DNA of 64,000 nt from Podospora anserina (taxonomy: Eukaryota). Below, in pieces: positions 572-48,410 of this stretch. Under the pieces are notes generated by a model. That model searched no databases. It saw only the letters and a program-made list of their open reading frames with translations, and was not told the origin of the DNA. Numbering within the stretch: position 1 is the stretch's first letter; each line of letters starts with the position of its first letter. The stretch covers positions 3,596,001 through 3,660,000 of the forward strand of contig CM030333.1 in NCBI GenBank assembly GCA_017654855.1. Direction: 5' to 3'. Made by a program: the position numbers and the translations under genes.

Positions 572-2158
572 TCACTTTCGCCAGTCCATCAAGTAACTGT
601 TTACGCTTTGGAGGGTGGCTCTGCCGGGGTTGGCGTCGGGGACTGTGTTCATGATGTGCCCTAGTTTGACCCGGATGGCAGTCTTGGTGAAGGACTCCCT
701 TTGGTCACTTGCTGACCAAATGTTTCCCTCGGCGTCAAAACACCAGCAGTAGAGAGCTAGAGCGACGCCTACCGAGAGATCTTTTCCTGACCCGCAGAGT
801 ATAACGAACCTCTTCTCAGGCACTGTGCCTTCCACGTCTGGTTTTGTCTCGCACAGAAAACGAGATGCAAACTCACAGATCCTTGGCAGAGCATCTCTCA
901 ACAGCCTACTGGCAGCCTTGCTCTTCCCCAACCCAACCTCGATATGAGAAGGTGACTTGACCCAAGAATCCTGAGGGGTTGTCTTGGGCAGCAAGCTGAC
1001 TACACACGTCCCCGGGGTCGCAAGTTGAGCGTCAACCGCTTCGAGGGTGCCTACATAGATCCCCGGAGCAACTCTTCTCACTTGCCCGGCGGAATCACCG
1101 GCGGGCCCTTCCTCGGCCACGAGCCTCTCGATAAGCTCGGGGAGGTCACTCTCTGGTGTGGAGACTAACTCATCCTTGTGCTTCCACCAAATCTGCGCCG
1201 TCAGACCCAGCGCCCAGTTCTCCGTGTCGTCTCCTGCTCCCTGGATGTACCCGCCCTCACCTAGCTCTGTTCCAGTGACTCTTCGGGAGCTGGTGCAGCA
1301 GACTACTGGGTGGAAGTCCTCGGAGAATGCAAGATCGAGAGCGTCGTCTTGGGTTATCCAGAACGGGCGGAGCGGTTTCTTCAGCTGGGCCCTGAGAGGT
1401 GCGAGGTCGATTTTGAGTGAGCGAAAAGACTCGACAAAGTCCGGGAGCCGGGCTGAGATTTGACTGGCTTCCGAATCCGAGACTGCGTTTGGTGGGACGT
1501 GGAGGGTGTGTGAGGAGGGGATGTCTGGGAAGAGGGCCCGGTTGAGGACTGCACACCAGGTTGGGATTGTTTTGCTTAGAGCGTCTGGGTGTCCTGATCA
1601 GGGTGTTGTCAGACTTTGTTTCAGCGAGTGGATGGATGCAAAGGATGGAAACAAAACTCACGTTTGCCTCGCCGGGTAGAGTCAACAATGATGCACCTGC
1701 AGGTAGGTAGCCGTCGGATTAGTTCATGATCCCCCCAAACCGACGAGTTCAGTTGGCTGGTAAACGTGGACGGGTAGCCGCATGATAATAATTAAAAAAA
1801 AAATACATGATAGACATTCATACCCATTATGTTCCCCAGCTACACCCAGCAAATGCAGATTTATCCTCCTCGTGCTAAACTTCCACTGGCCGGTGTGCCC
1901 ATCTGTGCTTTTGAAGTAAGCAGAGGCTGTCTTCCTGGCCGGATCGATATACCAGCTCCCGCAGCGCTCATTCGCGACCAACGGCAGCTGCAACGCGTCA
2001 GCAACACTTTCGACAAAAGAGGCGTCGTGTTGGATCGATCTGAGCCGGTTTGTGATGGAAAGGTTGGAGCGCTTGAGGTCTCCGAGAATGCGTGAAAAGT
2101 TGTGGTTGGCCTGCTCGGGGAATATCACCTCGGCCAGCGTGGGGGTTGCTGCAGCCAT
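572..2158 (-). CDS. RIT1: Initiator tRNA A64 2'-O-ribosylphosphate transferase
   Basis: Exons 2158-1824, 1696-1662, 1593-572 (1392 nt, in frame). Rit1 motifs ANERCGSWY, YFKSTDGH, IVDSTRRGK, PDALSKTIP, YIQGAGDD, and C-terminal GKDLSVG...LQSVNSYLM. Confidence 0.93.
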
Positions 2159-5851: not shown

Positions 5852-8156
5852 ATGGCTTCTCTGATGCCAGTCCACGCTGTCTTTGCGCCAGCTGGAAATG
5901 GCGCTTCGAATGGTGGTGGTGGTGGTGGTGATGGGCAAAAACCAAAGCGCGCGAGAACCAGCAAACCCAAGGTCAAGACGGGGTGTAACAACTGCAAGTA
6001 AGGGACATCCTCCCGCTGTCATCCCGCCAACGAGGTTCAAACTTCCCGGTGATGCATATTGTTGTGTCTGTTGGTTGGTGGCGCTGACCCCTGTTCTCCA
6101 CAGACAACGAAGGATCAAATGCGACGAACTTCGACCAGAATGCTACAACTGCGTGAGATCAAAAAAGATTTGTTCCGGATACCCTCCTCCTCCGCGCAGC
6201 GCCAGACCGTTTGAAGAAATTAGAATTGCACCAAAACCAATTGCCGGTGCCGGTGCCGTTGCGGCCGCTCCCCCACCCGTTCGCGATGCTCTTCAACTGC
6301 AGCCTCACCCACGACGGGTGGCCAAACAGCTCAAGCGGACCACAAGCCCCCTTACACCAGTAACACCTCAAGCGTTCATGATGCCAACAATGCCAACCAT
6401 GCCGGCTTTGCCGATTAACGTCTCGATAAATCTCCCATTCACCGCCGAAGAAGGACTCTATTTCCAGCTGTTCCGTGAGCGGACGGCAAGTGAACTCTCG
6501 GGCTTCTTCGACTCTGCCTTCTGGGCACGAAGCGTCCTGCAGGAATGCCATGGCGCATCCGCCATTCGGCATGCGGTTGTTGCTCTCGGAGCCTTGTACA
6601 AAACTCTAGATAAAACAAACGAGTCACCGCCGGGGTCACCAAGTTCAAACGCCAGCCCCTATGATAGTGCCAGGAGGCACTGGGAGATGGCTTTCAGGCA
6701 GTACGCCAACGCTCTGAGCGCGCTAATCAAGGCCGATTCAGCAGAGTCCTCCAACAGGACGAGATTGATGGCGAGCGTGCTGTTGGCATGCTTTGACTCG
6801 TTTGTTGGCGACCACCAGCAAGCTATTGTCCAAATCCAAAATGGGCTTCGACTGTTGGAGAAGCTCCGCCAGGAACGGAGACGGGCATTCTTACCCAAGC
6901 CTGAGGAGCCGGTGGAGGAAGAGCTCATTCAGATGTTCACTCGACTAGCCATTCAAGCAAAATCCTACGACATGGCCTTCCATTTTCCACAACCCTATGT
7001 CGTCCGCCTGACCGCGGCTGCCCAAGACCCCAGCTCACCGGGCTCTGAGGGCGGCTCGCCCATTTCAACTGACCAAGGTCCCGTCCCAGAGCGATTCTCA
7101 ACTGTGCAGGAAGCTCGTATCGTATGGGATCGCCTTGTCGAGCGCATCTTCCGCTTCACCGAGACTATGTTTGTTGAGGCTCAACACGGTGTCATGGGCA
7201 TCCTTCCAACCACGCTGGCGCAGCGCGGTATGAGCTTCAAAAAGGAAATGGATGACTGGGCTCATGCATTCGAACACATCCTTCAGTCCAGAACGGCACC
7301 GGGCGTGAGCAGCCAGGAAAAGGCATGCATTGCTGCAGTGAAGATGCATCAGATCATGAGTAGTATTCTGTTTATGATGACATTTTCCGACAGCGAGCTG
7401 CACTTTGACAAGTTCACGCCGGATTTCAAGCACATTGTGGATCTCGCTCTGGAAGTTGTTGGTGACGAGGAAAGAAGAGCGGCAGCCAAGCGTTGCCCAG
7501 ATCAGAGATTCTGTTACCACCAAAGCCGATGCGAACCCGATATCTTTGGAGGCCACGAATACGCCGCACGCCATATCAAGCCCAGCTTCAGCGCGGATCT
7601 GGGTATCGTTCCGCCGTTGTATGTGGTGGCGACCAAGTGCCGTGACCCCATCCTTCGACGGCAGGCCATTCAGCTCCTGAGGAGCAGCGCCAGGAGAGAA
7701 GGCATGTGGGACAGCGAGCTGACGGCACGCATCGGGATGTGGATCGCCGAGGTAGAGGAAGAGGGTTTGTTTGCCCCCAGTGATTTTACTCCGTCGCCCA
7801 CCGGTTCGAGCCCTGTACAGCTGTACTCGCCCCGTCCGTCGACAAGCGGCAGTTCTTTGACGCCGCCGCCTTCTGCGACATACAGCGGAGGCCGATCGAG
7901 CCTCAGCCCTCAACCTGGGTTTGAGTACACAGACAGCCCGCCTAGTCAGAATGGATATGCACGACAGTCGTCGCTTTCACCCAGTGTTTTGTCGGTGCAG
8001 ATACCGAAAAAGATTGTGCCGGCAGAGAAGCGCGTCATGGTCAGGGCAGTCGAGTTCAGCCTGCGTGACCGATCGGCTACGATACAACTGGGCTCGCGAA
8101 ACCTCAGACTGGGGACACCGGATTTGAGGACGAAAGTAACGAGGATTACGTGGTGA
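5852..8156 (+). CDS. Zn(II)2Cys6 transcription factor with fungal-specific C-terminal domain (Fungal_trans_2/DUF3468 type)
   Basis: ATG at 5852; intron 5998-6103 (GTAAGG..GCTGAC..CAG) joins KVKTGCNNCK to QRRIKCDELRPECYNCVRSKKIC, a complete C6 cluster; C-terminal PLYVVATKCRDPILRRQAI..RREGMWDS. Confidence 0.92.
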
Positions 8157-8930
8157 TGGAATTATGGGTTTATCTTTTTGCTTTTCTCTTCTTGAATATC
8201 TCGACTTTCTCATATACCCGGACAAGTGCTCCAGAGTCTTGTACAGAGGAGGTCTTTTTTTTCTTTTCTTTTCTTTTTTCTTTTCGTTTCGCTTCTTGTC
8301 GCATTGTTGAAACGATATTTTTTCATGTATGTGATGGGGGAAAAGGGGGCGGGAACGAAAACAGAAACGGGGGGTTCAAGAAAACGGTACACAGGAGAGC
8401 ATGGGTCGAGCAATTGGATCTCACGATCTTGCGTGTATTTTGGGTGTTTTGTTTTGTTTTGCCTATCTAGCTTGACTTGGTGGCGTTCTGTACTGCCAAT
8501 GTTGAATAGTTGTTTGGTGTTGGGGGCAAGGAGGGTTAGACAAATCGCCAGGGAACTGCTGTTGTGTGTCTCCCAGCAAATCCGTTCATTTTGGAAGAGC
8601 TGGTATCTGAAGAAGTTAGCGGGACGGGATGGGAAAACAGAACGACGATGCTCTAGTCTTTTTTCGCTTGGAAGGAGAAAGATATTTAAATAAACCAACC
8701 CATCTTGATCAAATTAGATTGCTTTGGCCGTGATTGAACTCTTCGTGTCTGTCTTGAGGGAAAGGGAAATGCCCGTCAGGCGCGTGAAGCCTTCCCTTTT
8801 TTTTTTCTTCTTTTTTTTTTGCTGCATTTCTAACAACTCCTTGGTGGGTTTTTAGAAGGAAATATTCAATAATAAGGCAGGAAGGGGGAATCTTAATGTG
8901 GCCAGCCTCTTTTCATGAGGAAACAATTGG

Positions 8931-9143
8931 GATGAGCTTTCCTCCAGGTTTGGGCAGAGAGATGTGAGGGAAGGGATCTGCTATTTGTCTACCGCAGTCA
9001 CTCCTTCCTCACCTCATCTCTTCCACATCCTGAGCAACAAGGGCAGGAGCAACCGCGATACATAGATTCCTTCCCGGCTCCACTCCCGCCACAGCGGCAC
9101 CGGCCAAATGGTCGAGCTGGTAAGCAGGTGAGCTTTTTGCTCC
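8931..9143 (+). repeat. Non-coding element, copy A (short form), homologous to 46703-47182 (-)
   Basis: Collinear blocks shared with copy B: 8931-8953 (16/23), AGTCnCnCCTTCCTCA 8996-9011 (14/16), GGCAGGAGCAACC 9042-9054 (13/13), GAGCTGG 9114-9120, GGTGAGCTTTTTGCT 9127-9141 (15/15). Confidence 0.6.
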
Positions 9144-9354
9144 CAACCCACCCCCTCCTTCCATATAGTTATATGACATGCCTTGGATCGTTTGCTTTAC
9201 CATTTACCGACCGGCACAAATATAATATTGGATCAAAGTTGATGATGAATCCCATCAAATTAGTCGCTCTTCTTCCATCAAAAAGCTACCGCTTACAGCC
9301 TAGGAACTATCCATCATCTGACCCCATCATCCGCCTATACACACTCTTTCTCCC

Positions 9355-12300
9355 CTAGGACATCCCCCAAGCCTGCCCCTGTCCGGGTTGTCCCCCCTCC
9401 CCCTCCCACCCTCCACTCCGCTGCTGCTGCTGCTGCTGCTGTCCCTGCCCCTGTCCCTGATACTGCTGCTGCTGATGCGCATGCATCATCTGCTGATAAC
9501 TCTGCTGCTGCTGCAACTCCCTCTGCATCTGCGCCTGCTGCATCATATAACCATAACCCATCTGCTCATCCCCCATCATCATCTCCGGCCCCATCATCAA
9601 CCCATCCCCCCCAAACCCAAACCCAAGCCCCAACCCCCCTCCCGGATCAAGCTTCTCCATCTCCCTCATAAAGAACGACCGCTCAATCTTCTCCATCATC
9701 ACCCTCTTCCCCTTTTCCCGGTCAAAAACCGCCATCGTCTCCGGGTACTTCCTCACGTTGAACCAGTGCGTCAGACTGCGCAGGGCCTGCTCGAGCGGAA
9801 GGGCTTCCTCAACCTCTGCGTCGATATCGGAGCCGGCCAGCCATTCGTCTCGCAGTTCTGGGCGGCAGTAGAGGTACACCGCCGTGATTACCCGCATGTT
9901 TGACTGCCGCCACTTGCGGCCGCAGTAGGGGACTTGGTTTTTGAAGAGTTTGAGGGTGTACAGCCGTAGTTCCTGCTGGGGAACCTTCAGGGTCTTGCGG
10001 AGGATGGGGGATGACTTGTACTGCACCAGCAGCAAGTTCCGGTGGGCCTTGTTCTTGCAGATCTTTTGCATGATTCGTAGATAGTTGATCAGGCAAAAGA
10101 AGTTTCGCCGCGAAAAGTCCGTGATGGGCTCGCTGGGGAGAGGGTTGACGGGGTAGCCGAGCTCGTCAACTTCTGGGCGCGTGGGGGGTGCTTGTTGTTG
10201 TTGTGCATCAAACGATTGCTGTGCGTCTTGGGACGCTCCTCGCTGATCAGGTGTGGTTGTTGGTGATCGACGACGTTTGATGGGCGGGGGGGCCGCGTCG
10301 TCCTCTTCCTCACTGACTTCCTCGACATCCTCGAATTCTGTAGCTGTAGGGTTAGGCATGCCCGGATGGGGTATCACGCCAGCCCGAGAGCCGCAGAAGT
10401 AGAAGAAGCTATGTTACCATATCAGCTTCCCATCACTTCCAACCAAGACGAATGAAGATATACACACCTATGCTCGAGACGATCAAGTTTATTTTCCACA
10501 ACCTGCTGTACGTCGTGGACAGCAAACAACTTGAGTACCAGCGGAATGTAGCAAGAATCCAACAGGAGCTGTGTCAAGTACTCGAACTTTAGAACGTCTG
10601 AGGCCCATGTTAGCACACTATCATCACAATGCTCGCTCCTGCAAAGAACTTACGAGAGAGCTTCAGCCACTTCAACAACAGGATCAGGATACCCGTGGCA
10701 GCCTTGGCAGCAATTTCCCGATTCCTCATCTCATCCACATCTGCATCTGAGGGCGAACCCGGATCAGGTCCCTTCCCGCCGGCCCCATTAGGCCCAGGCG
10801 CCTGGCTCGGCCCATTAGCCCGGCCGGCAGGTGGACCACCACCCTGTTGCTGCCCATTAGGACTGGCAATAACCATGTTACTAGCAATGGCCAGAACCTG
10901 CTTCAGCAACACCACAACCGCAGACTGGAGCTGCGGCAGCGCCTCCTTGTAAAACTCTTCAACTGCATCCAACCGCCGCTTCGTGTTGTCGTCAACCTCC
11001 CTGGGGCCATAATCCGCTCCTGATCTGGACGCCTTTCCGTCTTTGTCTCCTGGCTTCACCAAGCCCAGTTCCTCCTTCTCCTCAAGCGTCAACTCGTCAA
11101 GGTCGAGCTCATCGATGAGATCCTCATCCGCTCCCTCGCAGCCGCCCCTGCCCTCTTTAAGAAACTTCTCTCTCTCGTCCCACAGTTGCCGAGTAGCCCG
11201 CGTCATACGCACTCTCTTAGAGAAGAGTTCTCCTGCTTCCATGATCGAGGCTGGCACATCGCTGCCTTCCCACTTCCTCCCCACCAGCAGATCCTGGAGC
11301 CCTGCTCCTCCTTTCCCACCTGCGCTGTTACTAGTCGCGTCAAGCGGTGGGTACATGAAAGGGAAATTCTGGTTGGTTTGGTAGTTTTGTTTCTTTGCGC
11401 CCTTACCACCGGCTGCCGGGCTCGGGGGTGGTGATGGCGCTGGTGTCGCAATATGAACGGGCTGGTTAAGGATCGATCCTCCTCCCGTCTGGTTAGGAGG
11501 ACCGGAGATAATCCCAGTTTGGGCGGTGTTTCGGGGTGGGTGACTGGGTAAGTGAGGTAGTAATGATGTGTGCTCTGCTTCCAATGGAATTGCTGGCTGA
11601 GGCGGGACGTATGCTGGGTATTTTGATGTAATCTCCTGTCGGAATACGTGGTAGTCCAACGGCGAGGCCGTAATCAGTTCCATGTCTTTTTCGTTGATCT
11701 CCCTCTCGCTTGTCGCCTTCTTCGTCTCTGAAAGCTCCTTCATACCACCAAACACCAGCAATATTGACTTCCAAAACAAGAGGAAGATCTGAGTCTGTGG
11801 CAAAATCCCAGCCTCATCCCACCTCAGCTTTGCCGTCGCCAGCATGAGAAAGTCCACCAGGTTGGGGTTCAAGGCAACTGCAAACATGTTAGCAACCAGT
11901 CTCCCTTTTCTTCACCAAGAAAAAAGGTGCACTTACGCAACCTCGGCCTGACCTCCTCCATCCCTTCTGAATCCTCCAGAGTGACCTGAATAACGACATA
12001 CATGACCGTCATCAAATGAATCAGCTCCTCCACCTGCATCTGCAAACTCTGCGGCGGCTCATCCGCCCAAAACGGCTCAAAGGCCCCTCTCAGCGCATCC
12101 CACATCACCTCCACCCCTCCACACTCCGCCAACACCCTCACCCCCTCCTTCATAGCATCCAACTGCACCTTCGTAGCCGCACTCTTGCACTTCCCCTCCA
12201 CAACCCCATTCAGCATCCCCACCTTCCTAACAGTCACCGCCTCCGTCCACCGCCCCAGAACAAGATATACCACCGCCCCAATCGCCTCCCCTCTGACCAT

Positions 12301-20754: not shown

Positions 20755-23700
20755 GGGAACCTGCTTGTTCCCCTAGAGCAGCCCAGAGTTCTCCGCAGCA
20801 GCTCCCACCCAGATTACCAAACAGACAAAGAGAAGAGCAACACCTGCCTCGTAGAGTCAAGTCCCGCTTCACAGGTCCTTCTTGCAATGATGCCGATGGG
20901 GATGTCGGTGGATGATCAACAACAAAGTGGTGGTAAAGGATGGGATGACAGCCCACAGCAAGGTTGCAGGGCAGCGTGTATGTATATGTATGTACGAGCC
21001 AATACGGCCAGGAGGTGGAGGGGAACCGTTTTATGAGAACAAGAGGCTTCGGCAATGCCCCGGGGGCGACAAGGGACAGAGGCGAGGCCAAGCATACCCT
21101 GGCGCCTTCAAGGATGGGATGGTAGGGAGAACTGTTTAACAACGCTTGCAGGGCCCGTCGCGCGAAAAGGTGCTCCAACCATACAAGGAAGGAGGGTGAG
21201 GAACGGGGCGATCTGGCAGGCAAGCCCGAATTCCCCTGCTAGTCGAGATGGGGCAAGATACCGTCCCAGAAGCTCAAGGACAGGCTCTGCTATTTTACCA
21301 CGCCCTCCTTGAAGCCTCTGATATGCCTTCTAGCTGCTTGAGGTGTAGCTTGCTATACATGCGATGGAATAGCAGAGAAAACAGAGCATACATCCGATTC
21401 CCTTAATCTTGCCCACCTGCCCAAACAGGGGGCCGTCAACAGGTCCGCACAAGCAACTTCACGCGGTCTTTGCTGTGTCCACCAGCGGTCCCACTTGGGT
21501 TTGAAGGAGGGGTGGAGGTACGGGGCCGGTAGGAGGAGGAGGGCAAGTGAGTGATCAGAGAGGTATGAGGACCTTGAGGTGCATCATTCTGCTTAGGTAT
21601 GCCCCCCCCCCTGTCCTGCACCACCTGTCTGCCGAGCGGGAAGAGAAATACACATATCAACAGCCCCCTACCACCCATTGACGCACAACGTTTTTCTCGG
21701 AATAACTGTGGGCTATCTCTTTCGGGGGATGACCCGCGGGCACAGAACTTGTGGGTGGGTGTTTGGACGGACGGCGCATGGGGTCTGAATGGATACACGG
21801 GGGGGCACATCTGGCCAAGCCAAACGATCAGAGGGGATGGAGGAGCGGACAAGACGGCAAGCACCCCCTCGGCCCCTCCTCCGTCCAATCCAAGGCCAGG
21901 GTAGGAGAGGGCCCCCGGTTGTCGACCTTGTCGGCCGAGCGAACAGGGGCATCTGATTAGGCCAGGAATCCTCCGAGGACTCTGGGCGAACAGCTAGCGA
22001 CCCGCAATTTTCTAGAAGACCGTTGGGTAATAAACGCGCCGGCGAAGGGCCTTTCTGCTGCTGCTTTTCCAGAAGGGAATGGTCTCTTGTCGAGGAGGGG
22101 GGTAAAAAAATCGGTTCACGAGATTGCTCTCGACCGGGGTGGAGAGGGCGAACCAGAGCGCCCCCCGGTGGACCCCAGTCAGCTCGGCTCGAGATGGAAA
22201 ACACAATTACACACCCCTGCCCTGTCCTGCCCACCCCCTCCTCCATCCCCTCCTCCCCAGTTCCCCTCCAGTGCTGGGTGTTGCTGCTGCTGCTCCTTGC
22301 TTGCATTCTCGCGCGCTGCCCGTCCGCCGAAAAGAGGGACGACAGATGCAATATCAGGCCTTTTATACCTCTTGGCCACCGTTGTGGACGCCCTTTGACA
22401 CCTCACAATTGGCAGAGGATTTTAAACGAAATCAGCAGCAACATAAAGAAACCGCCTCGGACGCTTGCTGTGGATATCGCATCGCTTTGTCATTTGATCA
22501 CGACCGCGACGGCCGCGAGGTCCTGAGCAGACGATGGGTGATGGGCAACAATGGGCAGCGGGAGAGCAAAGTGCCTGGGCCCGCAGTGGACCGAGGCACG
22601 TCGAATCTTTTGCAACCGCCTGCATTGCAGTGTCTCTGGCTGGCTGCTGCTGCTCGGGCAGGAAGGACGCACAAGAGTGATCAGCGGACGAGGCATGTAG
22701 TCGGCAAAGGACTCGACAGCAAGATGGTATATCAGAAAGGAGGTGTCACTTCGGGGACTTGTGTGTGGCGGCGAGATGCAGGTTACGGGTCTTGGGTTTC
22801 TTCTCGTCCGCCATCCGGTAGGTGGTTCGGCGACCATGATCAGTGATATAATTTCTTCGTGATGGCCTCTCTCTTCTTGTCAGGAGGTGCACTCGAGTCT
22901 AGGAGCAGACGACTGGGTAACCCCGGCCATGCCGCATGGCCCGATCTGGTTGTAGTGCAGCACAGGGACCATCCGGAAAGCCGCCATAGCAGTAGCAGCA
23001 AAATGCGGAGGTGGGAAAACGGCGCCGCTTGACGACATTCCCGAAAGGGAACTTGGTGCCTGGCGCCCGGCTTGGGCGCAAAGGCCATGGCGATAAGTTA
23101 TGGGAGAGGAGCGGTCATGCCATTTCAAATGCGAGCCGTGGCTAGAACCGCATGGCCGACAGGAGGCTGGCTGTGATTGGAGCAGGTGGGCGGGATTGGC
23201 AACAGCTCAGCAACCTCTCAGTGATGCTCAGAGGCCAGCTCCTTAGTCCTTGCTGTATCGTGCATATGTGTCGTGACAGGGAGGGCGGCAGACGAGCTCG
23301 TCCGCGCTATCTCGATCTCCGTGCGGTGGAACTCAACCACCACCTACTGCTGCAATATCCAGCCAGATGGTCGAATGGGGGAGAGTCACTGCTTCCAAGC
23401 CACCTGCTGTCCTCGAGCTGGCAGAGAGGCAGCAGCAGAATCTGATCTTGATGGAGGTCGTCGTAAGGAGGTCGTAAGCTGGTATCCCGAAGCCACATGT
23501 GCATCTCCCAGGTGTGGTATTTAATGTATTTTAAATTGCATCGCACGCAGGCTGGGGAATAGGATGTCGAAAAGTGAGTGAGAAGCCCAGTGGTGTTTCT
23601 AAAAAAGAAATAGTGGAGGGGTGACAGGTCAAAAAGGTGTGGGTGTGTGGGTGATGCCTTCCAATGGGTGAGTCGGTGGTTGAACGGGTGCGCCTTCCTC

Positions 23701-43148: not shown

Positions 43149-43149
43149 T

Positions 43150-43268
43150 ACCTACAACACCGAGGATTCCCCAGTGGTCACCCACCTGAGTACTAGTTCG
43201 GCCCTCAACTGTTTCACTAGGGGAGAGCGGACGGGATCCCGTGCTTTCAGTTGGGTATGGTCGTAGGT
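43150..43268 (-). rRNA. 5S rRNA: Dispersed 5S rRNA gene
   Basis: 119 nt ACCTACGACCATACC...GATCCCGTCCGCTC...TAGTAC...GGGTGACCAC...GTTGTAGGT. Helices I, II, IV and V pair. Confidence 0.96.
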
Positions 43269-43682: not shown

Positions 43683-46590
43683 ATGACCGTGATCTACGGG
43701 AGGTCAATCGGCCGCGCTCTGCCCAGGCTGGGCGCTCTTCGTTCCGTTCTCTCATGCTCTCGTTTTGGGGATGATATTCGATACCTCAGCATCACAGCCC
43801 ATAGATACGCCAACAGCGATGCCAAACTGGACTTGCCAGCTTTGGATCAGAAATGGCGGCAGAGATGGGCAGCTTTGAAGAGCACCAAGACCAGCGACGG
43901 AGCTGAAAAGAAATATGTCCTTCCCATGTTTCCATATCCTTCGGGGTATTTACATCTGGGGCACCTCCGCGTCTACACCATTGCCGATGTTGTCGCCAGG
44001 TTTCACTCCCTTCGAGGACATGATGTCTTGCTACCAATGGGATGGGATGCCTTTGGACTTCCGGCCGAAAATGCCGCTATCGAGAGAGGCATTGACCCGG
44101 CCACCTGGACCAAGTCCAACATTGCCAAGATGAAGGAACAGCTCGACGTCATGAATGGATCCTGGGACTGGTCTCGCGTACGTTTGCACCTAGCCTTGAA
44201 CCCGGCCACCTGGCTGACATGACTACCTTTCCCCCCAGGAACTGGCAACCTGTGACCCAAGCTTCTACAAACACACCCAAAAAATCTTCCTCCTCCTCCG
44301 CGAGCAAGGCCTAGCCTACCAAGACGAAGCAGAAGTCAACTACGACCCCGTCGACAAAACTGTCCTCGCTAACGAGCAAGTCGACGCCAACGGCTGCTCC
44401 TGGCGTTCCGGCGCCAAAGTCGAAAAGCGGAAACTAAAACAATGGTTCCTCCGCATCTCCCAATTCAGAGACTCCCTCCTCCAAGACCTCGAAATCCTCA
44501 GCAAAGACAACAACTGGCCCGAGCGAGTCCTAACCATGCAAAAGAACTGGCTAGGCAAATCCACCGGCGCAACCATCAAGTTCCCCCTCATGGCCTTTGA
44601 GCACATCACCCACTCCGCCATCGAGGTCTTCACCTCCCGCCCCGACACCCTCTTCGGAGTCCAGTACCTCGCCCTCGCCTCCACCCACCCAGTCGTAGCC
44701 CAGCTAGCAGCCAAAGACCCAGAACTGCAAGCGTTTCTAGATATCCTCCCCGGTTTACCCCCCGACTCCAAAGTCGGCTACCTCCTCCCCCACATCCGCG
44801 CGGTAAACCCCCTAGCCTATCACGACGAGACCCCCGAAGCGACAAAGAGGTCTGTCCCCATCTACGTCGCCCCCTACGTCCTAGGTGACTACGGCGAGGG
44901 CGCCGTCATGGGCGTCCCCGCCCACGATATCAGGGATCACTCGTTTTGGAAAACGCACCACAAAGACGAGCCAGTCCGGTTCGTCCTTGCCGCGTCGGAG
45001 GATGAGTCCACCACCGCCATGCCAAACGAGCCTTTTATCGACCACGGCGTTATGACCGCCCACAGTGGTCTCTTCAAGGGTCGTTCCTCTCAGGAAGCAG
45101 GTGAGATGATCGTGCGTATTCTTGAAGAGGCTGAACTGGCTAAGCCGGTGGAGAAGTGGCGGTTGAGGGATTGGTTGGTCAGCAGGCAGAGGTACTGGGG
45201 GACGCCGATCCCGATTATTCACTGCGGTTCTTGCGGTGCGGTGCCCGTTCCGGAGGAGGAGCTACCGGTAGAGTTGCCAGAGGTGGATGAGCACTGGGCT
45301 GGAAAAAAGACGGGTAACCCGCTTGAGACGCTGGAAGAGTGGGTGAATACGTCTTGTCCTCAATGCCACGGCCCGGCGAGGAGGGATACGGACACGATGG
45401 ATACGTTTGTTGATTCGAGCTGGTATTTTGCGAGGTTTATCGACCCCCACAACGATGAGGTGCCGTTTTCGAGGGAAAAGGCAAGGAAGATGCTGCCTGT
45501 TGATCTCTACATTGGCGGGATTGAGCACGCCATCTTGCACCTTTTGTACTCGAGGTTTATTTACAAGTTTCTCATGGGTTCGACGCTGGTTGGGGAGACG
45601 GAAGGGGTGCAGGAGCCGTTCAAGCGGTTGATTACACAGGGGATGGTGCACGGCAAGACGTACACTGACCCTGCCACGGGGAAATTCCTCAAGCCTGACG
45701 AGGTTGATCTCACTGATCCGGCCAGACCGAGGGTTGTGAGGACGGGGGAGGTGGCGGGGGTGAGTTATGAGAAGATGTCCAAGAGCAAGTACAATGGTGT
45801 TGATCCTACCGATGTGATCAACTTGCACGGCGCAGATGCGACAAGGGCGCACATGCTTTTCCAGGCGCCGGTTAGTGAGGTGCTGGATTGGGATGGGGAC
45901 AAGATTGTGGGGGTTACGAGGTGGTTGGGGAGGGTTTGGGAGCTTGTTCAGCGGGTTTCGACTATCTCATCATCGGCCTCGGTGAGGGAGTTTTTTGAGC
46001 AAGAAGCGGCTAGATTGGGAACGATGAAGGAAAAGGAACTCCAACAGTGGGATAAAGCTGCGAGGGTGTGGAGGGAGGTGCAAAAGACTGTTGAGAGTGT
46101 CACGGGGTCGTACGAAAAGGTTTACGCGCTGAACACGGTGGTGTCGGATTTGATGATTTTGACGAATGTGATTGTCGAGGAGGAGAAGGGTGTGCCGGAT
46201 GGGGTGAAGAGGGAGGCGGTGGAGGGGTTAGTGAGGATGATGGCACCGATTACGCCTGCTTTTGCGGAGGAGTGCTGGGCTGTTCTTCATCCTGGTGAGA
46301 CGTCGATTTTTAAGAGTGAGAAGGGGAGGTTTCCGGTCGCGGATGGGACGGTGGATTTGCTGCAGCCGAGGAAGCAGGTTTGTGCGGTGCAGGTGAATGG
46401 GAGGTTGAAGTTTGCGGCCGAGATTGCGGTGCCGCCTGAGGGGTTGGGAGAGGAGGAGAGGAGGGAGTGGGTTGTTGGGGAGGTCCTGAAGACGGAGGAG
46501 GGGAGGAAGAAGTTTGAGGGTGTTGATGTTGGAAAAGCAAAGAAGGTGGTGGTGGTCAAGGGTGGGAAGTTGGTGAACTTTGTCATGTGA
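43683..46590 (+). CDS. NAM2: Mitochondrial leucyl-tRNA synthetase
   Basis: Exons 43683-44177 and 44239-46590 (2847 nt). [13 protein letters not shown] (HIGH), [45 protein letters not shown]; bacterial-type LeuRS with an Arg-rich presequence. Confidence 0.95.
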
Positions 46591-46702
46591 TGTGGGATGA
46601 AAAAGATAACTTGTATTTTATTGTATTGATGGAGTGGTAACACCAAAATAAATGAGCGATAGATTATGATCATTTCTTGGTCTTTCTTCTCCTGGGTGTA
46701 GA

Positions 46703-47182
46703 GGAAGCAAAAAGCTCACCGGCCAGCTCCGTAGAGGTGGCCAGCTACGAAACCCTCGGTAGGGTTTGCTTCGCGGTTGGGTGGAGGGGGGGGGGGGGGG
46801 GGTTTGTTGTTGATTTGGGGGGGGTCGGTCGATATTCTTGAAGGCCATCTTGAGAGATAGGGCCTCACTGAGGAATCGAACTCAGGCGTCCATGGAGCCC
46901 TGTTTCCAGGGGGCATTGTTCGTTGCCTGATCCGGGCCACCTACGTCTTACCCGCTGAGCCATCTGACCATTCCAGTTACCGGATGAGTGCGTAGGTGGT
47001 TGTTGGAAGGAGCATGGTTAACCTAATATATAAACCATGGGTTGCTCCTGCCTGCTCTTGCTCTTGCTCTTGCCGTGAGGCATGGGGTGTTTCTGAGGAA
47101 GGTGCGACTTCCATTACCTCGGGAGCAAGTGCCACGATGGCTACCTTCCGTGATACCCTCCAGTCCTGGAAGGAAGTCCACC
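46703..47182 (-). repeat. Non-coding element, copy B (long form), candidate structured ncRNA or non-autonomous element
   Basis: Same ordered motif blocks as 8931-9143, plus a 265-nt extra segment bounded by CAACC (47040-47044 and 46775-46779); hairpins with C(UACG)G and GAAA loops on the minus strand. Confidence 0.6.
46861..46969 (-). pseudogene. tRNA-like sequence with Pol III A and B boxes (degenerate tRNA or internal promoter)
   Basis: GGTCAGA then A box TGGCTCAGCGG (46962-46952) at tRNA position 8; T arm CTGAG-TTCGATTC-CTCAG with B box GTTCGATTCC (46881-46872); 3' TGAGGCC pairs 5/7 with the 5' end. No canonical anticodon arm and no adjacent T tract. Confidence 0.55.
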
Positions 47183-47331
47183 GCAGATTGAGGAAATGAG
47201 GAGGTTAAGTATAAACAACCGGTTTGCGATCATCATTTTGACTTTTGTGGAACGAGATCGGATGGTGGGATTAACACTTCAACAAACCACACCACACCAC
47301 CACTCAAACCACCCCCTCCCCAACGGTCTTG

Positions 47332-48410
47332 TCAACAATCCTTCCTCCAAAAATACACCCCCCTCCCATTCCCCCTTCCCTTCACCTCGACCTCCTCCCC
47401 ATTATTCCTCAGCGATATCCTCTCCTTTTCCTCCCCCTCAGGATCATCCCTCCAAATCTCCACCGTCCCCGCATAATTCTTCAGCTCCCCTCCCCTAACA
47501 ACCATCTCCGCCACCCTCCTCGCCTGCTCTACATCCCCCACCTCAAAAAGCACCCTTTTCGGCTGGAGGACACTCACAATCTCGAGCAACCTTGCATAAA
47601 ACACATCCTCCGGCAGGCAATCATACCCTTTTCCTAGGTTCACATCCGGAACAAGAGCGAGTTTAGGCTCGTATAACCGGACAGAACGTTCAGTGTTTTT
47701 GTTGAAGCCAGCGGGGGAGATGTAAGGGGGATTTGATGTCAGGATGTCTAACTCTCCCGGGGAAAAGGGGAGGGAAGAGAGGAAGGAAGGAGAAAAAATG
47801 TCGGATTTGGTAAAGGTTATGCTTTTGGAGGCGGAAAGGGGGAGGTGGGAGAGGGAGATGTTGTGGGAGAGGTTTTGGCGGGAGAGGGAGATGGCGAGGG
47901 GGGAGATGTCGACTCCGAGGGTTTGGCTGGTAGACGGGAGGAGGGAGGCTATCAAAAGGGGGATGCAGCCTGTTCCTGTGCAGAGGTCGAGGATTTTGAG
48001 GGGGGAGGACGAAAAAGGGAGGAGGGTGGTGAGGTGGGTTATTATGGATTCGGTTTCTGGTCTGGTCATTTAAGGTGGGTTAGTTTGGATATAAGTACCA
48101 AGGAAGATGGAAGGGTGAAGAGGGCATACCGTGGGATGAGAACACCTGGTTTGCAGAGGATATCAAGGGGGCCGAAGGGTTGGTTGCCGAGGATGTATTG
48201 TAATGGTATCCCCTTTTCCCGCTTGAGGCAGGCTTGCCATATTCCAAGCTTTCGGGGCACGAGGGAATCGGTTGAGTTGACGTGCTCTTTTATCCAGCGG
48301 AGTTCGTTGGCGGTTGAGTCGAGGGTTCGGCAGACGGGCAGAAGCAGGGGAGCAAAGGGTGATATTTGCTTCCGGGCTTGTCGAAATAGAGATGGTGCGA
48401 GTCGGGGCAT
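47332..48410 (-). CDS. MTQ1: Mitochondrial release-factor N5-glutamine methyltransferase (HemK/PrmC family)
   Basis: Exons 48410-48130 and 48061-47332 (1011 nt). PLQYILGNQPFG, VLIPRPETE, ILDLCTGTG, SNPPY, YEPKLAL. Confidence 0.9.

Follow-up and report, generated by a model that had tools for sequence, protein, structure and literature searches.

Intergenic regions that carry short blocks in common raise the question of whether they hold copies of one functional element or merely resemble each other. This question arises for the gap between two convergent genes in the genome of Podospora anserina, within a window of 64,000 nucleotides (contig CM030333.1, positions 3,596,001 to 3,660,000 of assembly GCA_017654855.1). 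The original prediction paired this gap (copy B) with a second gap of the same window (copy A) and interpreted the two as an undescribed family with conserved stems. Here we describe copy B as a composite. Its core, approximately 47036/47009-46705 on the minus strand, probably belongs, as a degenerate copy, to a dispersed repeat family of low copy number that is SINE-like and is laid out like a Pol III unit. Copy A is either a chance likeness or at best a gutted old relic, rather than the second copy of a structured RNA.

The ORFs of the window bear out the placement of each copy between convergent genes. At B these are the genes that the original prediction named NAM2 and MTQ1, and the tail of the repeat ends 115 nt downstream of the NAM2 stop codon, on the opposite strand. 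The strand settings of the two copies are unlike: A runs antisense to the nearer gene at its 3' end, and B has the sense orientation relative to MTQ1 and the antisense one relative to NAM2. Six sequencing runs were taken as RNA by guess only. In contigs of two of them (X15 and X17) the MTQ1 intron at 48062-48129 is removed by splicing, so both of these runs do contain RNA. Gap B is covered by RNA contigs, which are strand-blind and cannot reveal a discrete small RNA.

The blocks on which the two copies were paired are indeed found at both places, collinear, on the plus strand in A and on the minus strand in B. The pairwise BLASTN matches are GGTGAGCTTTTTGCT (19/21), GGCAGGAGCAACC (13/13) and AGTCnCnCCTTCCTCA (14/16). 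The terminal 15-mer has exactly two occurrences in the window, at 9127-9141 (+) and 46706-46720 (-). The spacing of the blocks had been called similar, which is wrong: the gap from the 13-mer to the 15-mer is approximately 72 nt in A and approximately 320 nt in B. The 13/13 block (47052-47040 in B) sits within a GAGCAA microsatellite, and the right half of A scores 36 against B and the same 36 against each of two unrelated loci. The likeness of A and B rests on this microsatellite-embedded 13-mer, a CT-rich block and the terminal 15-mer of the repeat family.

The core of B is multi-copy. DNA run X1 provided 165 contigs on the 2.7 kb around B, and copy numbers were estimated from summed depth. 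At least four long X1 contigs from other loci (3512, 1557, 25089 and 40429 nt) match the core internally; their spans on the core are 46710-46980, 46827-47009, 46837-47009 and 46940-46996, and each contig has between 7 and 32 differing letters. Two further contigs match it at contig ends (46710-46773 and 46710-46760). Bin depths of 547 (46874-46964) and 1075 (46692-46782), compared with about 120 for single-copy sequence, are 4 to 9 times the single-copy level and suggest 3-4 extra copies of the front of the core and 7-8 of the final 60 nt. In the left part of B the extra depth is almost nil (141 vs 115). The 38 variant places in X1 are almost wholly in the repeat, and 20 of the 38 are C>T or G>A. 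In the other copies A-rich sequence precedes the repeat on the plus strand, which is a T-rich tail on the element strand. A non-autonomous mobile element, one of the options of the original prediction, fits the multi-copy core of B, although the family is not a two-copy one and A is no demonstrable member of it.

The flanks of the core revealed no target-site duplication. Their best alignment scores 16, which 217 of 1000 shuffles reach, and they have no word longer than 6 nt in common. Such duplications could have disappeared if the insertion is old. Derivation from a MITE or another DNA transposon was rejected because the ends of 46705-47036 do not form an inverted repeat; the only inverted pairs there are four short internal ones of 10-13 nt. 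A nested insertion, in which an A-like sequence received a 260-nt insert flanked by CAACC, was also rejected because another copy is contiguous across the right junction (46710-46980). The joined 'empty site' scores 64, compared with 53 for the left part only.

Table 1. Features of copies A and B and of their surroundings (positions within the window).
Feature	Position	Strand	Details
Copy A	8931..9143	+	Short blocks in common with B; own hairpin 8956-9021; exact 15-mer 9127-9141
Copy B	46703..47182	-	Unique intergenic DNA 47182-47037 and repeat unit 47036/47009-46705
NAM2 stop codon	46588..46590	+	ORF 44218-46590
MTQ1 stop codon	47332..47334	-	ORF 47332-48069
(GAGCAA)n microsatellite	47042..47073	-	Period 6, 5.7 copies; (TTGCTC)5.7 read on the other strand
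TATA-like motif TATATATT	47025..47032	-	Begins 23 nt before the repeat boundary (47009); approximately 30 nt from the start placed at approximately 47000
Dispersed repeat core, degenerate copy	46705..47009	-	Contigs and depth of DNA run X1
A-box-like TGGCTCAGCGG	46952..46962	-	10/11 to the consensus TRGCNNAGTGG
B-box-like AGTTCGATTCC	46872..46882	-	10/11 to the consensus GGTTCGANNCC
C17 homopolymer in body	46786..46802	-	G17 on the plus strand; 6 fewer letters in contigs of three runs
Hairpin 1	46750..46767	-	AAACCCT / ACCG / AGGGTTT; 7/7 pairs in B and L001, 2 of them changed on both sides
Hairpin 2	46719..46744	-	CTGGCCACCTC / TACG / GAGCTGGCCGG, one C-C mismatch
Terminal GGTGAGCTTTTTGCT	46706..46720	-	T5 at 46713-46709; T-rich tails continue in other copies; candidate Pol III terminator

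The motifs of the core are arranged as in a Pol III unit (Table 1). The same layout is found in a fungal metagenome contig (L001), which carries TATATATAT at the place matching the TATA-like motif of B. The motif is also present, loosely, in two other copies. The TATA regions of B and L001 resemble each other weakly (score 31, reached by 19 of 300 shuffles). At the window's 5S gene (43268-43149), a TATA-like GATATAAC starts 31 nt upstream of the first base, and T7/T6 runs follow the gene. The consensus of the A box is TRGCNNAGTGG and that of the B box is GGTTCGANNCC. The two boxes of the core are in order, with a tRNA-like 80 nt from the start of one to the start of the other. The window contains 6 occurrences of a relaxed A-box pattern on both strands and 5 of the B-box core GTTCGANNCC (2.15 expected), so that the paired boxes are unlikely by chance, with an estimate of about 0.01. 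The boxes are followed by a variable body unrelated to tRNA (46871-46768) that includes the C17 homopolymer, and the unit ends with GAGC-T5-GCT. On the plus strand, the loose contig ends ahead of 46705 and 46710 are rich in A, and the tail of L001 is T-rich too.

A tRNA-derived head was not detected: ARAGORN reports 0 genes for both the window and L001, and there is no Rfam tRNA match at E values up to 10. The fold of the core (46705-47009, minus strand) is no better than that of shuffles (z -0.55). The absence of a recognised tRNA in the head, the lack of a target-site duplication and this unremarkable fold all speak against the SINE-like reading of B. The tail, T-rich instead of A-rich, does so as well, and such tails are unusual for LINE-driven SINEs. 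The TATA-like region seems to travel with the copies, to which DNA-level duplication or a true gene family is better suited than retroposition. The resemblance of the boxes to those of Alu and the TGTAAT motif of L001 prompted the idea of an SRP/Alu-like element. This was rejected, as no SRP model matches B or L001 at E values up to 10.

The two hairpins in Table 1 form a conserved 3' domain. B and L001 have a mean column identity of 82% across it and both hairpins are kept. All 41 pair cells (41/41) are standard, with two pairs changed on both sides and two changed on one side to G-U, although two full sequences give such covariation no statistical power and 118 of 500 shuffles do as well. 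The changes in hairpin 1 are also readable as a one-base register shift. In L001 the helix of hairpin 2 is 6 pairs longer owing to a 13-nt insertion. A loose-end consensus from run X16 contains yet another form of hairpin 1, the third (CCCC/TCGT/GGGG), directly after a B-box-like TCGATTCC. Because L001 was found by a pattern drawn from A and B, its terminal motif does not count as independent evidence. With a covariance model built on the 3' domain, B reaches 100.4 bits and A 9.7 bits (E 1.3, 4th among the 10 matches listed). Scans of prokaryote and virus contig collections for the domain yielded 0 stretches each, as expected.

The place of copy A depends on how its likeness to B compares with chance, and the outcome is mixed across tests. 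When A is queried against the window, two matches in B reach 25.4 bits (E 0.25 each) and unrelated matches are equally good. With chained blocks, B ranks 1st in 9 of 12 scoring settings, 2nd in 2 and 42nd in 1. In all-against-all chaining the A-B score of 75.9 is the 5th among 597 tiles, and when the window is shuffled block-wise by dinucleotides, 8 of 30 shuffles reach at least 75.9 somewhere. Gapped Smith-Waterman comparison yields a single collinear alignment (A 8905-9132, B 47202-46947) of 273 columns with 157 matches, 64 gap columns and 75% identity over ungapped columns. The score of 66 beats shuffled sequence (23.1±3.6, 0/500 as good, z about 12) but is only the 8th of 227 real window tiles; ranked by its lead over the next locus, the alignment comes 2nd of the 227. 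Evaluated by itself on a tile grid set to begin at 8931, the left half is placed 8th of 516 in score and 1st in margin. From these comparisons, the A-B likeness appears no stronger than the background of the window itself; the evidence is mixed, and A may have a real, old homology to B. The case shows that z-scores against shuffled sequence overstate likeness among CT-rich fungal intergenic regions.

Among the alternatives, the one that fares best takes A as a genuine, old and internally deleted relic of the unit at B, and it merits tentative consideration as a minority view. The unit would then be longer than the core and include the left part (47202-47040); A might perhaps have kept the 5' flank, the promoter region, the first approximately 55 nt and the terminal GGTGAGCTTTTTGCT. 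The single collinear alignment and the margin ranks are consistent with such a relic, as is the finding that A and B are reciprocal best matches (53, with next-best scores of 36 and 34). A also ends in the exact terminal 15-mer of the family, with GAGCTGG before it. However, nearly a quarter of the alignment columns are gaps, the 13-mer is part of a microsatellite, and the margin is tied with that of an apparently meaningless pair in the window (20826-20970 and 60841-60703). The left part of B has almost none of the excess depth of a repeat and does not match anything in L001 (score 21, reached by 144 of 300 shuffles), and A contains neither the TATA-like motif nor either of the 3'-domain hairpins.

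A second alternative concerns the nature of the repeat family. It is conceivable, although somewhat doubtful, that the core of B and L001 represent an undescribed Pol III-type structured RNA family of Sordariales-like fungi, with its own TATA, an exchangeable body, a compensated 3' double hairpin and an oligo-U end. If true, this would be either a novel type of fungal SINE whose tail is U-rich and not A-rich, or a set of small RNA genes that were mistaken for junk. The alternative in which the family is not mobile and is a small multigene family of a functional Pol III structured RNA absent from Rfam, with B as a decayed pseudogene, is unlikely. The shared TATA-like motif, the paired changes in the 3' hairpins, the T-run terminator like that of the 5S gene and the want of a target-site duplication would all agree with RNA genes. 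So would the intact unit of L001, which folds at z -8.86 (0/200 shuffles as good). But copies within one genome are 5-20% apart and enriched in C>T and G>A changes, the bodies of B and L001 cannot be aligned, and 3' ends outnumber 5' ends as they do in truncated retrocopies. Perfect stems such as those of L001 are commoner in young DNA palindromes than in RNA genes.

The central proposal of the original prediction, that an undescribed structured non-coding RNA or 3'-UTR element exists in two copies, A and B, with stems kept and loops diverged, is very improbable. Its attractions are the collinear blocks, the rank of B as the best-chained locus for A in most settings, the gapped score above shuffles, the convergent genes on either side and the RNA contigs over gap B. 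Neither copy has a fold signal on either strand (z -1.38 for A+, -1.28 for B-, -1.54 for A- and -0.89 for B+), and the 8956-9021 hairpin of A has no counterpart in B. One of the stems described as shared, CCACCTC/GAGCTGG closing a UACG loop, is real in B and kept in L001, where it is hairpin 2 of the 3' domain. The pairings named for A and B lie between blocks that do not vary from one copy to the other, and therefore provide no evidence of covariation and could not do so. The block chain is matched in shuffled windows, the strand contexts differ, approximately 300 of the 480 nt of B are a multi-copy repeat that A is without, and A is missed by the 3'-domain model. The claim of a new structured RNA family from A and B does not hold.

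In Rfam 15, with its models of tRNA, SRP, RNase P/MRP, snRNAs and ribozymes, B has 0 matches at E values up to 10. At the gathering score, the only Rfam 15 match in the whole window is the 5S gene at 43149-43268, which leaves A and B without one. Copy A has 12 matches at E values up to 10, all sub-threshold, and the matches in A and L001 are only sub-threshold miRNA-like, lncRNA-like and other ones of 11-21 bits. Finally, descent of A and B from a decayed orphan protein-coding gene is scarcely credible: open frames run over both (8936-9358, plus strand, 140 aa; 46977-47204, minus strand, 75 aa) and agree, as read by eye, at the first block, but they differ at blocks 3 and 4, several alignment gaps are not multiples of three (also by eye), the core is a non-coding repeat, and Pfam at E values up to 1 gives 0 families for 3 of 4 window ORFs and for the fourth one sub-cutoff match (10.7 bits, cut-off 21.3).

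The preferred reading of B as a decayed, SINE-like repeat suggests the following course of events. Pol III would start near 47000 through the internal boxes and the upstream TATA and stop at the T run, which would generate an RNA of roughly 290 nt. The 3' hairpins would be the constrained part, either as a handle for a reverse transcriptase or for stability of the RNA 3' end. Copies would spread and then decay through transitions. The copy at the B locus is probably dead, and may be carried passively in long or read-through transcripts of the two convergent genes. The annotation of gap B should include a short dispersed repeat of Pol III architecture, present there as a decayed copy. The 3' domain, kept between the Podospora copy and an unrelated fungal contig, offers a handle for the whole family and for a possible partner retrotransposon.

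To our knowledge, SINE-like elements are poorly catalogued in filamentous fungi. No SINE, MITE or short interspersed family was found for Podospora in full-text searches of the literature. The words SINE and MITE are absent from the main text of PMC2441463, PMC10787394 and PMC8092012. A repeat of the B type, approximately 300 nt long, may already be listed among the 'repetitive elements of unknown origin' of P. anserina (PMC2441463, Additional data file 3) or in PodoTE v1.0, the curated Podospora repeat library named in PMC10787394.

The known systems nearest to the core of B are fungal tRNA-related SINEs and the dispersed 5S genes of the same species. Mg-SINE of Magnaporthe is a fungal tRNA-related SINE. 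The AfuSINE2 families of Aspergillus fumigatus are given as 140-493 bp long and of low copy number (PMC5063351). The core of B is like them in being short, low-copy, dispersed and intergenic, and in having ordered, degenerate A and B boxes followed by a long tRNA-unrelated extension that ends in oligo-T. Unlike AfuSINE2 and Mg-SINE, it has no recognisable tRNA fold and no target-site duplication that could be found. It differs from them also in an upstream TATA-like motif that is seemingly part of the unit, in the conserved double-hairpin 3' domain, and in a family tail that is T-rich and not A-rich or an ACT repeat. P. anserina has 87 dispersed 5S rRNA genes, of which 72 are full length, according to PMC2441463. 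The B unit does not match 5S in sequence or structure, its boxes are A/B-like and not of the 5S type, and its copies are diverged and decayed. It is like the 5S genes in being dispersed and multi-copy, with a TATA-like motif approximately 30 nt upstream and T-run terminators.

The core of region B (46703-47182, minus strand), from about 47009 to 46705, lies between two convergent genes and is most plausibly a decayed member of a dispersed repeat family of SINE-like, Pol III type. Contigs of one DNA sequencing run (X1) and three runs guessed to be RNA (X15, X16 and X17) were mapped onto 45600-48300, and those of X1 show that the middle of B is multi-copy. Of the 165 X1 contigs placed on these 2.7 kb, many are short matches at the G17/C17 tract. 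Inside B, long contigs that derive from other loci matched at 46710-46980 (contig of 3512 nt), 46827-47009 (1557 nt), 46837-47009 (25089 nt) and 46940-46996 (40429 nt), and two further contigs start at 46710. The summed X1 depth was 547 over 46874-46964 and 1075 over 46692-46782, versus about 120 elsewhere. Differences between the other copies and B are mostly transitions; the 38 variant places in X1 fall almost wholly in the repeat, and 20 of them are C>T or G>A. A-rich sequence precedes the other copies on the plus strand, that is, a T-rich tail on the element strand. The G17/C17 tract (46786-46802) is 6 letters shorter in the X1, X15 and X16 contigs, which reflects either polymorphism in length or the assembly.

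The A-box-like and B-box-like features of the core were labelled by their likeness to the Pol III box consensus sequences. No run of at least four T was seen by eye in the core ahead of the terminal T5. Judged from this layout of motifs, Pol III transcription of the repeat family is putative.

Features of the core of region B, in window positions
Feature	Position	Strand	Basis
TATATATT (TATA-like)	47032-47025	-	sequence
Repeat boundary	~47009	-	mapped contigs
A-box-like TGGCTCAGCGG	46962-46952	-	motif match
B-box-like AGTTCGATTCC	46882-46872	-	motif match
C/A-rich stretch with C17	C17 at 46802-46786	-	homopolymer tract
Hairpin 1, AAACCCT/ACCG/AGGGTTT	46767-46750	-	B-L001 3'-domain alignment
Hairpin 2, CTGGCCACCTC/TACG/GAGCTGGCCGG	46744-46719	-	B-L001 3'-domain alignment
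TGAGC-T5-GCT	ending at 46706	-	sequence

Scanning metagenome contigs with the terminal motif returned one fungal-looking contig (L001) with a relative of the repeat. The search pattern came from B and from region A (8931-9143, plus strand), so the terminal motif in L001 cannot count as independent evidence, in contrast to the remainder of the match. In L001, TATATATAT lies upstream; the AGTGG... and GGTTCGATTCG motifs come next, followed by a 3' domain with 82% mean column identity to that of B. Standard pairs fill 41 of the 41 pair cells in the two sequences. Two hairpin 1 pairs are changed on both sides, two hairpin 2 pairs are changed to G-U, and a self-complementary 13-nt insertion in L001 lengthens hairpin 2 by six pairs. 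In the pair-change test 118 of 500 shuffles were as good, and two sequences carry no statistical weight; a register shift would also explain the hairpin 1 changes. In the loose-end consensus of another Podospora copy, a B-box-like motif is immediately followed by a third form of hairpin 1, CCCC/TCGT/GGGG. Of all these features, the conserved 3' domain with its two hairpins alone merits further work.

The intact L001 unit (697-910, minus strand) is extremely stable: it folds as a series of almost perfect GC-rich hairpins (-140.2 kcal/mol, z -8.86). The z of the core of B alone is -0.55, and for this reason B looks like a decayed copy. Such regularity in the hairpin chain is unusual for an RNA gene. 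Outside the 3' domain, likeness between B and L001 is weak and confined to the TATA-proximal region (score 31, 19 of 300 shuffles as good), and the left part of B, compared with L001, had no counterpart. The L001 unit stands tail to tail with an unrelated plus strand ORF (3-539), about 135 nt from the ORF stop; B is comparably placed, 115 nt from the NAM2 stop.

The original prediction joined B to A through shared ordered blocks. These are present and collinear in BLASTN (19/21 around GGTGAGCTTTTTGCT, 13/13 for GGCAGGAGCAACC and 14/16 for AGTCnCnCCTTCCTCA), and the window has exactly two occurrences of the terminal 15-mer. The spacing, described as similar, is not: the last two strong blocks lie about 72 nt apart in A versus about 320 nt in B. 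The excess of likeness over chance depends on whether shuffles or real window tiles serve as the null. A gapped local alignment of A 8905-9132 with B 47202-46947 (273 columns, 157 matches, 64 gap columns) scored 66 versus 23.1±3.6 for shuffles (0/500 as good); against real tiles it ranked 8th of 227 by score and 2nd by margin, the margin being tied with that of 20826-20970 (plus) and 60841-60703 (minus). These two loci are a reciprocal best pair (Smith-Waterman 56, margin 19-20 over the next locus) with no evident coding or repeat meaning, and they urge caution on the reach of background similarity. Collinear-block chaining under 12 scoring settings placed B first in 9, second in 2 and 42nd in 1. 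In the all-against-all comparison of the window the A-B chain ranked 5th of 597 tiles, and a chain at least as good was found in 8 of 30 block-shuffled windows. A search of the window with A gave two B matches (25.4 bits, E 0.25), with unrelated matches equal or better. The left half of A alone was 8th of 516 by score and 1st by margin on a tile grid set to start at 8931. The shared blocks are weakened because the 13-mer lies inside a (TTGCTC)5.7 microsatellite and two unrelated loci score at least as well as B against the right half of A. As a description the similarity stands, but it does not amount to demonstrated homology; the likeness of B to A is weak and not proven.

When the entire window was searched, unfiltered, with a covariance model of the 3' domain, B scored 100.4 bits. 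A reached 9.7 bits (E 1.3), placing it fourth in a set of chance-level matches. The terminal 15-mer and the GAGCTGG just before it are present in A; both hairpins of the domain are absent. It is rather unlikely that A is an old, internally deleted relic of the repeat that also shares the upstream flank of B; otherwise the likeness would be one of chance.

The data do not support the two-copy structured RNA that was proposed. Minimum free energy z values are ordinary throughout (A plus -1.38, B minus -1.28, A minus -1.54, B plus -0.89), and the 3'-domain model did not recover A. Stems were said to be kept while loops diverged; the listed pairings join blocks identical in A and B and therefore carry no covariation, and B lacks the imperfect hairpin, some 19 pairs long, that A forms at 8956-9021 (plus strand, GAGAGAUGUGAGGGAAGG...CCUUCCUCACCUCAUCUCU). 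At the gathering score, Rfam matched nothing in the window but a 5S gene. With E up to 10, region B had zero matches and region A weak ones alone (11-21 bits; miRNA-like, lncRNA-like and snoRNA-like), of which the miRNA-like, sub-threshold at 15-20 bits, reflect the hairpin. An orphan-gene relic, the alternative first offered, found no support: the ORFs over A and B, read by eye, change frame between blocks, and a Pfam search of them gave no family at its cut-off. A MITE is ruled out because terminal inverted repeats were sought and are absent.

Gap B is bounded by the stops of NAM2 (plus strand, 46590) and MTQ1 (minus strand, 47332), and gap A by a plus strand gene ending at 8156 and a minus strand ORF ending at 9355. 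On the proposed strands, B has the orientation of MTQ1 and is antisense to NAM2; A has that of the distant zinc-cluster gene and is antisense to the 3' end of ham-2 close by. Their transcript contexts therefore differ. Contigs of X15 and X16 extend from the NAM2 coding region over gap B to 47337 and 47243, and those of X17 cover 46549-46796 and 46897-47335. B is therefore transcribed within longer RNAs, as far as contigs blind to strand, transcript ends and any small Pol III product can tell. Two of the three guessed runs, X15 and X17, do contain RNA, since the intron of the MTQ1-like gene (48062-48129, minus strand, 68 nt, GT..AG) is spliced out in both. An AATAAA at approximately 46650-46655 (plus strand) lies about 60 nt past the NAM2 stop and just before the repeat tail, so that NAM2 transcripts may mainly be polyadenylated upstream of B; the RNA contigs nonetheless run on past it across the gap. 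At 46608, 18 nt past the NAM2 stop, the three RNA-type runs all read G instead of A, and at 47674 A instead of T; X1 has the window letters at both places. Both are probably differences between strains, T>A not being a change that editing can make. At 47590 T replaces C in all four runs.

The repeat family may already be catalogued: a supplementary table of the P. anserina genome paper has 'repetitive elements of unknown origin' (PMC2441463), and a curated repeat library for Podospora exists (PMC10787394, PMC8092012). Among described elements the nearest kind is the tRNA-related SINE of fungi, reported in Aspergillus fumigatus as low-copy and 140-493 bp long (PMC5063351). The core of B resembles these elements in its boxes, body, oligo-T and dispersal. 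It differs from them in its head, where no tRNA was recognised in the window or in L001, so that 'tRNA-derived' stays unproven, and in its flanks, where no target-site duplication was found around the core. A local example of the Pol III layout is the 5S rRNA gene at 43149-43268 (minus strand, Rfam 94.6 bits), in which GATATAAC starts 31 nt upstream of the first base and T7 and T6 runs come just after the gene; this gene and the core of B are alike in having a TATA-like motif upstream and T runs at the end.
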